From a virus (taxonomy: Duplodnaviria; Heunggongvirae; Uroviricota; Caudoviricetes), in the IMG/VR virus record IMGVR_UViG_2671180637_000005: DNA of 18,478 nucleotides; one strand, written 5' to 3'. The notes under the pieces are model-generated. The model worked only from the letters and a program-made list of their open reading frames with translations, made no database searches and was not told where the DNA came from. Made by a program: the position numbers and the translations under genes. This document shows, one piece after another, positions 1,758-10,572 of this stretch. Each line of letters begins with the position of its first letter. Position 1 is the stretch's first letter.

Positions 1758-2221
1758 GCAGAGTAACCGCGATTATCTCCGCTCTGATTATCTGCATCAT
1801 CGTCTGCCTGTCATGGGCTGTTAATCATTACCGTGATAACGCCATCGCCTACAAAGAGCAGCGCGACAAAAACGCCAGAGAGCTGAAGCAGGCGACCGCC
1901 ACCATTACTGACATGCAGCAGCGCCAGCGTGCTGCTGATGTACTCGATGCTAAATACACGAAGGAGTTAGCCAATGCGAAAGCTGAAAATGATGCTCTTC
2001 GGCGTAAGCTTGATAATGGTGGTCGGGTGCTCGTCAAAGGAAAATGCCCTGTGCCAGCCTCAGCCAAAACCTCCAGCGCCTCCGGCATGGGCAATGAGGC
2101 CACCGTCGAACTCTCTTCAGTTGCTGGACGAAACGTTCTCGGTATCCGGGACGGAATTATCCGTGACCAAACAGCACTGAGAACGCTTCAGGAGTACATC
2201 AGGACGCAATGCCTGAAATAA
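1754..2221 (+). CDS. i-spanin Rz (lambda-like)
   Basis: [45 protein letters not shown]... closely matches recalled lambda Rz. N-terminal TMD then coiled-coil periplasmic domain. ATG 1754 overlaps endolysin stop (ATGA). Confidence 0.9.
1974..2180 (+). CDS. o-spanin Rz1, lipoprotein embedded in the +1 frame of Rz
   Basis: Entirely inside Rz in another frame. Signal peptide with lipobox VVGC then Pro-rich mature part ([18 protein letters not shown]). Resembles lambda Rz1. Confidence 0.85.
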
Positions 2222-2254
2222 ATTTTTTTGCAAATCACAAAGTCAATTTAATGA

Positions 2255-2277
2255 GCCTCGCGATGCGGGGCTTTTTT
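2255..2277 (+). terminator. intrinsic terminator-like hairpin downstream of Rz
   Basis: GCCTCGC(2255-2261) / GCGGGGC(2265-2271) stem, 3-nt loop, followed by TTTTTT (2272-2277). Confidence 0.55.
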
Positions 2278-2420
2278 ATGTCCGCAGTAAACGCGCATCT
2301 CACGCGCATATTAACGAGAGCCTTTCAGTAAGCGAGCCTGAGAAATGCCGTTATAGGTGGCGACCTCTCTCGGGCGGCTTTTCTGTGAGACAGGCTCACT
2401 TTCTAAAAGGTAAAGACGCT

Positions 2421-2945
2421 ATGAATAATCATTCAGTTATTCCAGCCTTCGACTTCCGAGAAATGGTGCAAGCCAAAAACGGAGAGGTCGTTACCACATC
2501 CAGAAAAATTGCCAAGTACTTCGGCAAGCGACACGGTGATGTTCTCAGGAAAATCGAGCAGGTTAAGGCTGATTGCTCGCGTGAGTTTAGCCAACGCAAT
2601 TTTGCGTCGGCTGATTATATCGATGAGCAGGGCAAGGTTCGCCCGATGTACAGCCTGACGAAAGATGGCTGGATCATGGTTGTGATGGGGTTCACCGGGA
2701 AAGCTGCTGCGGCAATCAAGGAGAGCTATATCGCAGCATTCAACTGGATGGCAGAGCAACTGAGCCGCCGCATGGCAATTGGCGAAGAAATGCAGCACCG
2801 CTACGCCATCAAAGAAACACGCTCAAAGCTGAAAGGTACGATCGGCAGTCGGTTAATGAACGAACGGAAGAGAGAGAAGCGTGTCCTGGCTGTCGAGCAT
2901 GAATACATTTTGCAGGTGACACAGCCTGAACTGCTGATTAATTGA
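2421..2945 (+). CDS. Rha-family phage regulatory protein (moron position between lysis cassette and cos)
   Basis: N-terminal region ...VTTSRKIAKYFGKRHGDVLRKIEQ... matches the Rha signature as I recall it. ORF open from 2385, but ATG 2421 (MNNHSV) is the more plausible start. C-terminal ~80 aa unassigned. Confidence 0.7.
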   Translation: MNNHSVIPAFDFREMVQAKNGEVVTTSRKIAKYFGKRHGDVLRKIEQVKADCSREFSQRNFASADYIDEQGKVRPMYSLTKDGWIMVVMGFTGKAAAAIKESYIAAFNWMAEQLSRRMAIGEEMQHRYAIKETRSKLKGTIGSRLMNERKREKRVLAVEHEYILQVTQPELLIN

Positions 2946-3341
2946 AGATGTCATTACAAAGCCTATCTACGGGTGGGCTTGATAATGGCTTATACCCTGC
3001 ACGGGATAACTTAACTGATATCCCTTTTAACGGATAAAGGTATTCAGGCCAGACACATCATGCGCTGTATCGTCGCCGTATTCCCGCATTAACCATGACC
3101 GTAGCCCGACGGGGAACTCCTCTGCGTGAGTGTGCGGGAATAATCAAAAACGATGCACACCGGGTTTTTACCGCGTTTATGATTCGTGGGTTTGTCCCTC
3201 ATGCTCGCCAGTCCTGTGCGGGGGTGGAAGAAACAGGACACTTACACAGATTCTTGTGGGCACGATGCTATGCCTTTCTGGATTATCCCGATGCCATTCA
3301 TGCAAGGCGTTGTATCAGACGTTCGTCAGAGTTGTCAGGCT

Positions 3342-3390
3342 GACGGGTCCTCCCGGTGGGGTGGCCTGCCACGGGGCGGGAGCGTCGCGG
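3342..3390. other. cos site: cosQ-like and cosN-like elements of a lambda-type cohesive-end site
   Basis: GACGGGTCCTCCCGGTG (3342-3358) resembles lambda cosQ (ACGGGTCCTTTCCGGTG). ACG|GGGCGGGAGCGTCGCGG (3371-3390) resembles the lambda cosN junction (ACG|GGGCGGCGACCTCGCGG). Lies ~180 bp upstream of the small terminase gene, as in lambda. Lambda sequence is recalled from memory. Confidence 0.5.
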
Positions 3391-3428
3391 AAAAAGGCTA
3401 GTTTTTGAAATTTTATTCGTCATCACCA

Positions 3429-3456
3429 CCACTGTAATTGATTGATATTACAGTGG
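3429..3456. repeat. perfect 10-bp inverted repeat in the cosB-equivalent interval
   Basis: CCACTGTAAT (3429-3438) / ATTACAGTGG (3447-3456) with 8-nt spacer TGATTGAT, followed by TTTTATTTTC. Candidate terminase or host-factor binding site, or a terminator. Confidence 0.4.
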
Positions 3457-3559
3457 TTTTATTTTCATGGTGTCGATTCTGATTGTTTTTTGTTCATCAC
3501 TAACACCGTTTGCCTAAAGTTGTTCGCAAGATGCATGTTTAAAACATTCTGGAGCGGGT

Positions 3560-4054
3560 ATGGATCGAGAGTTAAAAAATCTGACGCTGAATATCAGTCA
3601 ACTGGCGGCATTGTCAGGTGTACATCGCCAGACTGCTGCGGCAAGGCTGCAAAATCTACCCGTTGCAGGGGGGCATGAAAGCAACCTCAAGCTTTATCGG
3701 GTGGTTGATATTGTGTCGGCATTTCTGGCATTACCACCGCCGGTTGCAGAAGGCGAAATGGACGCGCATGAGCGCAAAGCCTGGTATCAGTCTGAACGTG
3801 AGCGTCTTAAGTTCGAACAGGAAACGGCACAACTCATTCCGGCCAGTGATGTCAGACGGGAGTTTGCCATCTGGGCAAAAGCGGTCGTGCAGGTGCTGGA
3901 GACATTACCGGATATTCTTGAACGTGACTGCGGTCTGCAGCCTGCCGCTGTGAGCCGTGTTCAGTCCATTATTGATGATCTGCGCGATCAGATAGCCCTG
4001 CGGGTGACTGAAGCAGGTGCGGATGATGAGGAGGAATTACAGCAGGAGGAGTAA
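3560..4054 (+). CDS. terminase small subunit (Nu1-like, N-terminal HTH DNA-binding)
   Basis: Position immediately downstream of cos and upstream of terL. N-terminal HTH-like segment (LTLNISQLAALSGVHRQTAAARLQN), acidic C-terminus. RBS GGAG upstream. Stop overlaps terL start (TAATG). Confidence 0.75.
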   Translation: MDRELKNLTLNISQLAALSGVHRQTAAARLQNLPVAGGHESNLKLYRVVDIVSAFLALPPPVAEGEMDAHERKAWYQSERERLKFEQETAQLIPASDVRREFAIWAKAVVQVLETLPDILERDCGLQPAAVSRVQSIIDDLRDQIALRVTEAGADDEEELQQEE

Positions 4055-5838
4055 TGCTGAATCAGGAAACCGCAAAGGCAGCACGAACCGATTCAGGTTA
4101 TATCCTTCGCGCACCGAGACGAATGCGGGTTGCTGATGCCGTTGCTCAGTATATGCGGGTGCCTATGGGGGCAGGGAACTCAGTCCCGTGGGATCCGCTG
4201 GTGGCACCGTATGTTATTGAGCCTATGAACTGCCTGGCCTCGCGTGAATACGACGCAGTGATATTTGTTGGCCCGGCACGAACCGGCAAGACTATCGGCC
4301 TGATTGACGGCTGGGTGATTTACAACGTGATTTGCGATCCTGCTGATATGCTGATCATTCAGATGACGGAGGAAAAAGCCCGCGAACACTCCAAAAAACG
4401 ACTCGCCAGAACGTTTCGCGTCAGCCCGGAAGTGGTCAGTCGCCTGAGTCCGAACAAAAATGACAACAACGTTTATGACAGAACATTCCTTGCTGGCAAC
4501 TACCTGAAAATCGGCTGGCCGTCAGTCAATATCATGTCTTCATCAGATTATAAATGCGTGGCGCTGACGGATTATGACCGTTTTCCGGAAGATATTGATG
4601 GTGAGGGGGATGCCTTCTCTCTTGCCTCAAAACGTACCACCACATTTATGTCCAGTGGTATGACGCTGGTGGAGAGTTCCCCCGGCAGGGATGTGAAGGA
4701 TGTGAAATGGCGACGGACTTCACCGCATGAGGCTCCACCAACCACGGGGATCCTGTCGCTCTATAACCGTGGCGATCGCCGTCGCTGGTACTGGCCCTGT
4801 CCACACTGTGGTGAGTATTTTCAGCCCTGCGGCGATGTGGTTGCTGGTTTCCGTGATATTGCCGATCCTGTGCTGGCAAGTGAGGCGGCTTATATTCAGT
4901 GTCCTTCCTGTTCAGGACGGATTTTGCCTGAACAAAAACGCGAGCTGAACGGACGTGGGGTCTGGTTACGGGATGGTGAATCCATCAATGCAGATGGCAG
5001 TCGTTATGGTGATCCCCGGCGTTCACGTATTGCGTCATTCTGGATGGAGGGTCCGGCAGCTGCTTATCAGACACTCTCGCAACTCGTTTACAAACTGCTT
5101 ACTGCAGAACAGGAATACGAGACAACCGGAAGTGAAGAGACACTCAAGACGGTTATCAATACCGACTGGGGATTACCTTATCTTCCCCGCGCCAGCATGG
5201 AGCAACGAAAAAGTGAATTGCTTGAGCAGCGGGCAGAGCCAGTTCCTTCCCGCAGTGTGCCGGATGGCGTTAATTTCCTTGTGGCGACAGTGGATGTGCA
5301 GGCGGGACGTCATCGCCGTTTTGTGGTTCAGGTAACGGGCTATGGCAGCCGTGGCGAACGCTGGATTATTGATCGTTACAACATCACGCAGTCATTGCGC
5401 GGTGACAGCGACGGGGAGAGCCAGCGAATTGATCCGGCCAGCTATCCGGAAGACTGGGATGTCCTGCTGACGGATGTTTTTCATAAAAGCTGGCCGCTGG
5501 CCTCCGATCCTTCTCAACAAATGCGACTGATGGCAATGGCGGTGGACTCCGGCGGTGAAGACGGGGTCACTGATAATGCCTATAAATTCTGGCGTCGTTG
5601 CCGTCGTGATGGCCTTGGTAAACGTATTTACCTGTTTAAGGGCGACAGCATCCGGCGCGCAAAACTGATCACCCGTACATTCCCTGATAACACCGGACGA
5701 ACGGGCCGACGGGCGCAGGCCGCAGGTGATGTGCCGCTCTGGCTTCTTCAGACGGATGCCCTGAAAGATCGGGTGAATAACGCGTTATGGCGTGACTCGC
5801 CAGGTCCCGGCTGGCGAGGTTCTGATGGCAATTCTTGA
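4054..5838 (+). CDS. terminase large subunit (GpA family)
   Basis: 594 aa. Walker A-like GPARTGKT; CPHCGE zinc-ribbon-like motif and VWLRDGE segment shared with lambda gpA (recalled). Followed directly by portal. Confidence 0.9.
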   Translation: MLNQETAKAARTDSGYILRAPRRMRVADAVAQYMRVPMGAGNSVPWDPLVAPYVIEPMNCLASREYDAVIFVGPARTGKTIGLIDGWVIYNVICDPADMLIIQMTEEKAREHSKKRLARTFRVSPEVVSRLSPNKNDNNVYDRTFLAGNYLKIGWPSVNIMSSSDYKCVALTDYDRFPEDIDGEGDAFSLASKRTTTFMSSGMTLVESSPGRDVKDVKWRRTSPHEAPPTTGILSLYNRGDRRRWYWPCPHCGEYFQPCGDVVAGFRDIADPVLASEAAYIQCPSCSGRILPEQKRELNGRGVWLRDGESINADGSRYGDPRRSRIASFWMEGPAAAYQTLSQLVYKLLTAEQEYETTGSEETLKTVINTDWGLPYLPRASMEQRKSELLEQRAEPVPSRSVPDGVNFLVATVDVQAGRHRRFVVQVTGYGSRGERWIIDRYNITQSLRGDSDGESQRIDPASYPEDWDVLLTDVFHKSWPLASDPSQQMRLMAMAVDSGGEDGVTDNAYKFWRRCRRDGLGKRIYLFKGDSIRRAKLITRTFPDNTGRTGRRAQAAGDVPLWLLQTDALKDRVNNALWRDSPGPGWRGSDGNS

Positions 5839-9390: not shown

Positions 9391-9714
9391 ATGGCAAAGA
9401 ATTTTGTAGAAGAAGGAAAAACGGTGGCGATTGTTGCCAGTGCAGCCATCAGCAGCGGAGATCTGGTGCAGGTGGGTGATGTTTTTGCGGTGGCGCTGAC
9501 CGATATTCCACAGGGTGAAACAGGCGACGGCATGACCGAAGGTGTGTTTATGCTGCCTAAGCTGAAAACGGATGACATGAAAACGGGTAAGAAGGTTTAT
9601 CTGAAGTCAGGAAAAGTTCAGCTGACTAACAGCGGCTCTGATCCGCTGGTCGGGGTTGTCTGGGCAGATGCCGGAACCAGTGCAGAAGAAGTGCCGGTAA
9701 AACTCAATGTCTGA
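9391..9714 (+). CDS. small head protein, likely capsid decoration/cement-like (DUF2190-like)
   Basis: 107 aa directly after the capsid gene with strong RBS (GGAGACAG). Family assignment is from memory of DUF2190-type proteins and is tentative. Confidence 0.5.
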   Translation: MAKNFVEEGKTVAIVASAAISSGDLVQVGDVFAVALTDIPQGETGDGMTEGVFMLPKLKTDDMKTGKKVYLKSGKVQLTNSGSDPLVGVVWADAGTSAEEVPVKLNV

Positions 9715-9982
9715 TCCCTTTTCCCGGCTGGCAGCGCGTATGGATACGATCACGGTCAGAAAGATGGGAAAGACAGCCTCGATTAATGATGCCGATATGA
9801 CTGTGATCCCGGGAGAAACACTGGCAGAGCTGAATGCTCTGTCCGGACCTGCGGTCTCTCTGGTGGTGTTTTCTTCGGGATACCGCCCACGGCGCGGGGA
9901 TCGCGTTGTTTATGACGGACAACAATGGACGGTCACACGGCATGAACGCTTTAACGGTAAGCCAATGATCTTTATTGAGTAA
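9707..9982 (+). CDS. head-tail connector / tail attachment protein (lambda gpFII-like)
   Basis: 91 aa. C-terminal PRRGDRVVYDGQQWTVTRHERFNGK resembles lambda FII LRRGDTLTIGEENFWVDRV (recalled). Overlaps previous stop (ATGTCTGA). Confidence 0.6.
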   Translation: MSDPFSRLAARMDTITVRKMGKTASINDADMTVIPGETLAELNALSGPAVSLVVFSSGYRPRRGDRVVYDGQQWTVTRHERFNGKPMIFIE

Positions 9983-9993
9983 AGAGGTATGGG

Positions 9994-10572
9994 ATGAAGG
10001 GGCTTGAGAATGCCATCCGTAATCTGAACAGCCTTGATACCCGGATGGTACCGCAGGCCAGTGCATGGGCGATAAACCGTGTGGCACAGAAAGCCGTTTC
10101 GGTTGCCACACATAAGGTCGCACAGAATACCGTGGCAGGGGATAACCGGGTGAAGGGGATCCCTTTCCGGCTGGTGAAAGAACGTGTCCGGGTACTGAAA
10201 GCCAGTCCGTCAGGAAAAATGTATGCCCGCATTCGCATTAACCGGGGCAACCTGCCCGCCATTAAGCTGGGGGCAGCCCGGGTCAGACTGGCCCGTCGTG
10301 GCGGAAAACTGCGGTACCGTGGCAGTGTGCTGAAGGTGGGGAAATATCTTTTCCGGGATGCGTTTATTCAGCAACTGGCGAATGGTCGCTGGCATGTGAT
10401 GCGGCGTATTGATGGCAAAAATCGTTACCCCATTGATGTGGTGAAAGTCCCGCTGTCCGGACCGCTGACACAGGCATTTGAAGATGCCCGCGACCGCATC
10501 ATTGCTGCGGAAATGCCGAAACAGCTGGGGTATGCACTGAAACAACAACTGAGATTATGGCTGACCCGATGA
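9994..10572 (+). CDS. Z: tail completion protein Z (lambda gpZ-like)
   Basis: 192 aa, same length as lambda Z; MKGLENA..., ...NGRWHVMRRIDGKNRYPIDVVKVP... match recalled lambda Z. Confidence 0.85.
   Translation: MKGLENAIRNLNSLDTRMVPQASAWAINRVAQKAVSVATHKVAQNTVAGDNRVKGIPFRLVKERVRVLKASPSGKMYARIRINRGNLPAIKLGAARVRLARRGGKLRYRGSVLKVGKYLFRDAFIQQLANGRWHVMRRIDGKNRYPIDVVKVPLSGPLTQAFEDARDRIIAAEMPKQLGYALKQQLRLWLTR

Follow-up and report, generated by a model that had tools for sequence, protein, structure and literature searches.

The rha locus and its neighbours

The stretch of DNA analysed here (the window) comprises 18,478 nucleotides of a Caudoviricetes virus (IMG/VR record IMGVR_UViG_2671180637_000005). 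An open reading frame running on the + strand from an ATG at 2421 to a stop codon at 2943-2945 encodes a product of 174 aa, and not of 175 aa as stated in the original prediction. On its upstream side lie the genes of a P21-type holin (1000-1260), a lysozyme (1260-1757), Rz (1742-2221) and Rz1 (1974-2180), and on its downstream side those of a DUF1441 small terminase (3560-4054) and, from 4054 onwards, of a GpA-type large terminase. The gene thus sits, as had been proposed, between the lysis cassette (after Rz) and cos. The features of this part of the window are:

2253 to 2279, + strand: intrinsic-terminator-like hairpin, GAGCCUCGC GAU GCGGGGCUU followed by a U-run (terminator scan; conserved in the alignment)
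2421 to 2945, + strand: rha coding sequence, 174 aa (Rha models, identity to phi80)
2493 to 2753, + strand: Rha domain, residues 25-111, winged-helix-like fold (the part varying between alleles is residues 17-87)
2700 to 2921, + strand: predicted single long basic helix, residues 94-167 (positions 121-173 nearly invariant in close alleles)
3374 to 3385, + strand: cosN, start of the cohesive end and downstream boundary of the slot (record starts of cdtI, Tritos and mEp460_4F5)

We place cosN at 3374-3385 because three independent phage records start there (those of cdtI and Tritos at 3374 of the window, that of mEp460_4F5 at 3369), because the sequence at 3374, ACGGGGCGGGAGCGTCGCGG, resembles the cosN of lambda, and because an IHF consensus lies 50 nt to the right. 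This consensus is perfect (3435-3447, - strand) and is contained in a perfect 11-bp inverted repeat (3428-3457) followed by a T-rich run. The repeat, about 45 nt to the right of cosN, may be the IHF site of cosB. It is also terminator-like on the + strand, where it lies across the path of late transcription.

The hairpin upstream of the gene, originally located at 2255-2277, is real: it has a 9-bp G+C-rich stem at 2253-2273 and a T-run extending to 2279, the phi80 and HK639 records mark the corresponding hairpin as a terminator, and P22 has one too. Rather than being the gene's own terminator, as first supposed, it closes the lysis cassette and shields rha from upstream transcription. A 40-aa ORF at 2209-2331 starts 13 nt before the Rz stop codon and crosses this hairpin, and a 50-aa ORF ('UTI89_C2658-like') overlapping the end of Rz is annotated at the corresponding position in mEp460 and g341c; we doubt that the 40-aa ORF is a real gene.

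A rha gene follows directly after Rz/Rz1 in phi80, P22 (after gene 15/Rz1), HK639, the Klebsiella phage Chronis and the Stx phage Lyz12581Vzw, and a Rha-family gene lies to the right of the lysis cassette in Sf101 and CUS-3 too (PMC4159516). What had been described as an insertion at a moron site is instead the canonical position of rha, as in phi80, P22 and HK639. The slot after Rz is nevertheless variable, as had been stated: mEp460 and Ayreon share the flanks and lack rha, and in HK620, SPN3UB and g341c the place of rha is taken by KilA-N or T5orf172 genes. The occupant of the post-Rz slot in lambda is bor.

The 428 nt that separate the end of rha from cosN (2946-3373) contain no convincing ORF, whereas phi80 has four more ORFs between rha and cos. 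Other records carry two overlapping ORFs in different frames over this interval, one of them called 'putative late gene regulator' in Ayreon. The interval travels with the terminase module, being common to mEp460 (without rha) from 2949 on, and the similarity to phage 2B8 ends at 3239. A search against Rfam found no match in it, its fold z-score is a modest -2.05, and it is free of notable repeats.

Compared with a prophage of E. coli E2348/69, with which it shares 98.7-98.9% identity, the window lacks 527 bp (E2348/69 locus 9606-10132), with the junction at 5800-5812 and a 13-bp overlap. Lost with these bp are the 3' end of the large terminase gene (594 aa here, 700 aa there) and a gpW-like gene, and the truncated terminase frame runs into the portal gene. 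Judging from this rearrangement, the prophage is probably defective for packaging.

The gene is an ortholog of phi80 rha

The Rha-type N-terminal domain that had been predicted was recovered by profile search. The product matches Pfam Phage_pRha PF09669 over residues 25-111 (E=2.2e-28, 99.1 bits, cut-off 29.9), the NCBIfam model TIGR02681 (113.8 bits, cut-off 45.95) and, over its full length, phrog_518, 'Rha-like transcriptional regulator' (3.5e-78). It is 73% identical end to end to the Rha of phi80 (126/173 residues, 2 gaps) and 38% identical to that of P22. The segment 2200-3560 has a 97.7% identical copy in E. coli E2348/69, in which the gene is annotated 'Rha family transcriptional regulator', the annotation also found in the top-ranked RefSeq E. 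coli matches. The phi80 gene (PHI80_62, JX871397), founder of the Rha family, resembles the window gene in its full-length sequence, in its position after Rz/Rz1 and a terminator, and in its two-part architecture. By sequence, the gene is therefore an ortholog of phi80 rha in a lambda-like E. coli prophage, that is, a known gene and nothing new in itself. The name rha dates from the 1980s.

A Shine-Dalgarno sequence, AAAGG (2406-2410), lies 10 nt 5' of the rha ATG. We rejected an upstream GTG at 2385, which would give a 186-aa ORF, as it lacks a Shine-Dalgarno sequence and as an extra leader base in homologs brings the frame opened by the GTG to a stop. The phi80 record has a GTG start 12 codons upstream; here too we take the downstream ATG as the true one, since the homologs with the extra base hit a stop. 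The GTG starts annotated for phi80 and P22 rha both fall inside the leader hairpin described below. The annotated and the modelled starts are at 39575 and 39644 in P22 (NC_002371) and at 3185 and 3221 in phi80. The homologs and the covariance model described below suggest that both genes start at the downstream ATG, which would give a P22 Rha of 178 and not 201 aa and a phi80 Rha of 172 and not 184 aa.

The AlphaFold2 model of the product (46 homologs, mean pLDDT 82) consists of a compact alpha/beta domain (residues 17-88) and one uninterrupted helix (residues 94-167). Variation between close alleles hardly touches the first 16 residues and the C-terminal helix; residues 17-87 fall into two allelic types, one in the window and HK639 and the other in phi80, Chronis and ENT1; phi80 Rha thus differs from the window protein in the allelic type of this part. 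The C-terminal half had been described as basic and uncharacterised. It is basic (residues 112-174 have a pI of 9.9, with 13 K+R against 9 D+E), and, far from being an addition peculiar to one lineage, it is the most conserved part of the protein: on allele comparison it is the conserved core of the subfamily, and variation is concentrated in the putative recognition domain. From the model, the long basic helix is probably an oligomerisation element.

Foldseek returned no significant match (E >= 0.08), the weak top matches being winged-helix proteins of the MarR and PadR types, and a sequence search of the PDB gave no match. PF09669 was the sole Pfam match, the ANT (PF03374), KilAC and P22_AR_N (PF10547) domains being absent. 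We also considered the C-terminal half as an ORF11CD3 domain (PF10549) and rejected this assignment, as residues 107-174 had no Pfam match at E <= 10 and the profile-profile probability was 0.2%. No defence model of PADLOC-DB 2.0 matched the product at E <= 0.01.

A conserved hairpin pairs the ribosome-binding site

The cassette consists, in order, of the terminator, a structured leader of about 130 nt and rha. The 199 nt from the Rz stop codon to the rha ATG are identical to those of phi80 at 198 positions (99.5%), for an identity of 73% in the rha coding sequence and 64% in Rz. When 25 homologous leaders were folded singly, they gave a common architecture, made of a small hairpin (P0) and a hairpin of about 90 nt whose base pairs GCCUUU to the Shine-Dalgarno sequence AAAGGU. 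The elements of the leader are:

2293 to 2307, + strand: P0, small hairpin at the 5' end of the leader (GCGC, 7-nt loop, GCGC), predicted in 24 of the 25 single folds
2315 to 2320, + strand: segment a, CGAGAG, just 5' of the long hairpin; exact complement of a'
2320 to 2411, + strand: long leader hairpin (single-sequence folds and covariation)
2320-2332 with 2399-2411, + strand: P1, whose base GCCUUU pairs with the Shine-Dalgarno AAAGGU
2334-2340 with 2391-2397, + strand: P2, helix of the leader hairpin
2341-2345 with 2380-2384, + strand: P3, helix of the leader hairpin
2347-2352 with 2373-2378, + strand: P4, helix of the leader hairpin, with frequent G-U pairs
2355-2358 with 2363-2366, + strand: P5, helix of the leader hairpin
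2367 to 2372, + strand: segment a', CUCUCG, in the apical internal loop of the hairpin; partner of a
2406 to 2410, + strand: Shine-Dalgarno AAAGG of rha, paired inside P1

The pairing is maintained through sequence change. A search of viral contigs with the product returned only copies 99-100% identical, useless for covariation. A plain MAFFT alignment of 13 leaders had 88% of its cells paired, against 41-51% in slid controls, and 15 pairs changed on both sides. A covariance model was built from this alignment, i.e. from one leader group; RNAalifold, applied to a joint MAFFT alignment of both leader groups, yielded only 9 pairs with the arms out of register, and the covariance model was used instead. 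Among 43 distinct leaders aligned with the model, 92% of the cells were paired and 32 of the 34 pairs showed changes on both sides, in 285 cells as compared with 16-43 in slid controls, values that none of 500 shuffles reached; the fitting of this alignment to the model favours the structure, and the unfitted alignment and the single folds agree with it, more weakly. The stem of P0 also varies in the alignment (GCGC/GCGC, GUGCA/UGCAC, GCUC/GAGC, CGCC/GGCG). The model scores 120 bits on the + strand and 24 bits on the - strand, and 29 of the 43 distinct leaders have a minimum-energy fold in which the Shine-Dalgarno core is paired. As judged from covariation, the leader forms a conserved RNA hairpin whose base pairs the ribosome-binding site.

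This RNA is apparently undescribed. Rfam 15 gave no match at the gathering score in the window, only chance-level matches in 2150-3600 (E >= 0.19), and none on the leader in 7 loci with divergent leaders, and our literature search found no paper describing a rha leader element. Apart from the ATG, the only unpaired positions at least 85% conserved in the 43 sequences are A2319, G2387 and A2405, and the small number of strongly conserved unpaired positions argues against a ligand-binding aptamer. Two other readings of the leader were set aside: a leader peptide (AUG-CCG-UUA-UAG at 2346) was rejected since the mini-ORF is not conserved in the alignment, and a K-turn at the 6-nt bulge since no GA motif is conserved there. 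P4 followed by a U-tract was considered as an intrinsic terminator; the U-tract is weak in many homologs.

A second pairing involves a and a', which form a perfect helix of 5-8 bp in 39 of 41 distinct homologs, in 21 sequence versions (CACCGA/UCGGUG in P22). The mean run of this helix is 6.29, against 4.17 +/- 0.16 with permuted partners. By our own reasoning, a:a' does not coexist with the extended hairpin, because both of its strands abut hairpin strands without a linker, and the two appear sterically incompatible when the hairpin is fully extended. When the transcript is cut after a', as in nascent folds, it adopts a three-way junction closed by a:a'. The second pairing could be either an alternative state of the RNA or part of a pseudoknot, with the hairpin folded back at the 6-nt bulge.

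The same leader precedes unrelated genes

The search set comprised 75 loci with genes for Rha relatives, each species being represented by a single genome. The covariance model found the leader on the + strand, with its end at the start codon, in 46 of these 75 species-level loci and in all the reference phages, and it is still recognisable before proteins only 35-43% identical to the product, in Erwinia, Xenorhabdus, Morganella, Providencia and others. One locus, that of Enterobacter sichuanensis, has a near-threshold match to the Rfam family int-alpA downstream of the Rha gene (2241-2304, 32.8 bits for a gathering score of 35.8).

The leader is not confined to rha. An identical 108-nt leader precedes HK620 hkbK, which encodes a KilA-N + ORF11CD3 protein, and variants of it precede the genes of a KilA-N protein in SPN3UB, of a T5orf172/MUG113 protein in g341c and of a Rha + ORF11CD3 protein in the Stx phage Lyz12581Vzw. 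The latter phage carries a second copy (462-569) between R and Rz, before an 'antirepressor' gene of the P22_AR_N + ORF11CD3 type, and phi80 has a second copy (4710-4800), devoid of P5 and a', before PHI80_66 (N15 gp59-like). By blastn, the leader occurs in 155 phage records, 73 of which are Stx2a-converting phages. Short 'hypothetical protein' ORFs annotated over the leader in g341c (1756-1926, +) and SPN3UB (1759-1917, -) are probably spurious.

As an identical leader serves unrelated proteins, the control that it exerts is probably not an autoregulation by Rha. The variety of the genes downstream of the leader also leads us to see the slot as one that houses interchangeable regulator-like genes behind a single RNA element. 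We regard as evenly balanced the more general proposal, built on these sequence comparisons, that the leader (2286-2420) represents an undescribed class of cis-regulatory RNA, combining a hairpin that hides the ribosome-binding site with the a:a' pairing (switch or pseudoknot), and that it would act as a portable gate, in late operons of both lambda-like and P22-like phages, for regulators that can replace one another and are probably dose-sensitive (Rha, KilA-N, T5orf172 and P22_AR_N/Ant-like), responding to a common phage or host signal.

Expression of rha

A scan of 2222-2420 on the + strand revealed no sigma-70-like promoter, by a simple consensus match that could miss a weak or non-sigma-70 promoter, and a terminator scan of the + strand after rha found none before 3428. 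The G+C content of rha (0.497) is ordinary; the window as a whole has 0.528, and Rz and the small terminase gene have 0.53. Of the usual marks of a moron, the gene therefore shows presence and absence among related phages, and neither a promoter and terminator of its own nor a distinct composition. A late-operon gene fits these observations better than a moron expressed in the lysogen, because no promoter, no downstream terminator, no odd composition and no match to a defence system were found.

Henthorn and Friedman are said to have described, in 1995, a promoter that lies upstream of phi80 rha with IHF sites on either side. No site with at most one mismatch to the IHF consensus WATCAANNNNTTR is present in 2200-2420 of the window; three IHF-like sites with 2 mismatches lie at 2217-2253, and a site with 1 mismatch (2427-2439) is inside the rha coding sequence and is not kept in phi80. 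Over the whole window, matches to the IHF consensus are fewer than expected by chance.

Function of Rha and of its leader

The phenotype on record for Rha is an inhibitory one. The phi80 record carries the note 'DNA synthesis inhibition in IHF- hosts' (JX871397), and, in the account given in PMC4936722, which summarises Mozola and Friedman (1985) and Henthorn and Friedman (1995), the Rha of phi80, like that of P22, halts phage growth and DNA synthesis when the host lacks IHF.

The explanation that we favour, and that we consider rather probable, is that the gene is an ortholog of phi80 rha held in the late operon as a cassette with a structured leader, translated at a low level and encoding an oligomeric DNA-binding regulator. 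The terminator precedes the leader and no promoter was found there by the scan, for which reason rha would most likely be transcribed only late in the lytic cycle, by polymerase under Q antitermination. The leader would then keep the translation of rha low, or time it, acting either as a switch between two states or a folding intermediate, or as a substrate for processing. Its input would be something other than the encoded protein, the candidates being RNase III, a small RNA, co-transcriptional folding or a late phage protein. Rha itself would most likely be an oligomeric DNA-binding regulator, putatively one that, when overproduced or when the cell lacks IHF, stops the phage from replicating its DNA and growing, i.e. 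the classical phenotype of phi80 and P22 Rha.

One might alternatively see Rha as an antirepressor that inactivates a CI-type repressor, either that of its own phage, thereby locking lytic growth, or those of co-resident prophages, which it would induce or exclude. Related PHROG families are labelled anti-repressor and RefSeq names P22 rha 'anti-repressor', yet these labels stem from annotation and not from tests, and the product lacks the ANT, KilAC and P22_AR_N domains. The second leader of Lyz12581Vzw, before the P22_AR_N + ORF11CD3 gene, does put Rha in one regulatory class with Ant-like proteins. However, a late gene, being expressed after the loss of the repressor, cannot be what triggers induction of the prophage that carries it, and what has been documented for Rha is that phage growth and DNA synthesis are blocked, not that induction occurs. 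We thus hold this alternative to be unlikely.

We think it quite improbable that rha is a moron expressed in the lysogen and involved in superinfection exclusion or phage interference, as put forward in the original prediction. The polymorphism of the post-Rz slot, which holds accessory genes in other lambdoid phages, is in keeping with such a role, as is the capacity of Rha to inhibit phage growth under some conditions (PMC4936722). Against it, the gene has no promoter-like site on the + strand, a terminator directly upstream and none directly downstream, a ribosome-binding site engaged in pairing, an unremarkable composition and no PADLOC match; moreover, the inhibition described in phi80 hits the very phage that carries rha, and only in IHF-deficient hosts.

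Finally, lambdoid phages being mosaic, with the identical 108-nt leader found beside quite different genes as a recombination linker would be, and palindromic operators being able to change symmetrically too, the conservation of the leader could be ascribed to recent recombination at a shared junction or to a protein-binding site in the DNA instead of a functional RNA, but this is very improbable given that divergent copies (66-75% identical) keep their pairing, 32 of 34 pairs having changed on both sides, that G-U pairs are frequent in P4, that the reverse strand scores so much lower (24 vs 120 bits), that a:a' persists in 21 sequence versions and that an imperfect, bulged hairpin of 90 nt is atypical for an operator.

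Relation to known systems

Our favoured explanation, that of a late-operon rha restrained by its leader, can be set beside several known systems. The rha gene of P22 (ORF201) is like that of the window in its slot, its Rha domain and the architecture of its leader (terminator, P0, a/a' and long hairpin). The C-terminal part of its product resembles the ORF11CD3-type tail of the Rha of the Stx phage, unlike the tail of the window protein.

The leader of the lambda N gene is sensitive to RNase III and contains a hairpin that hides the ribosome-binding site. It shares with the rha leader a long imperfect hairpin located 5' of the start codon and including the Shine-Dalgarno sequence, and the control of a dose-sensitive regulator. 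The two leaders have no sequence relationship, however, and the rha leader differs by the a:a' pairing and by the unrelated genes that follow it; cleavage by RNase III would be a conjecture here.

Phage antirepressor genes are controlled by RNA in the cases of sar of P22, c4 of P1/P7 and IsrK/anrP of Gifsy-1, and sar is annotated in the P22 record. By analogy, the rha leader may be akin to these RNAs in gating, at the RNA level, the translation of Ant- or Rha-type proteins. Nevertheless, sar, c4 and IsrK are trans-acting or antisense, whereas the rha leader is cis-acting and on the sense strand, and no match to C4, IsrK or another Rfam family was found here even at E <= 5.

Our comparisons also suggest that rha of phi80 and of P22 has been annotated with a start too far upstream. 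More generally, the leader RNA provides a testable handle on the way in which rha, KilA-N and Ant-like genes are restrained in the late phase. Its presence in Stx2a-converting phages, as detected in their sequences, could bear on the control of late genes in those prophages.
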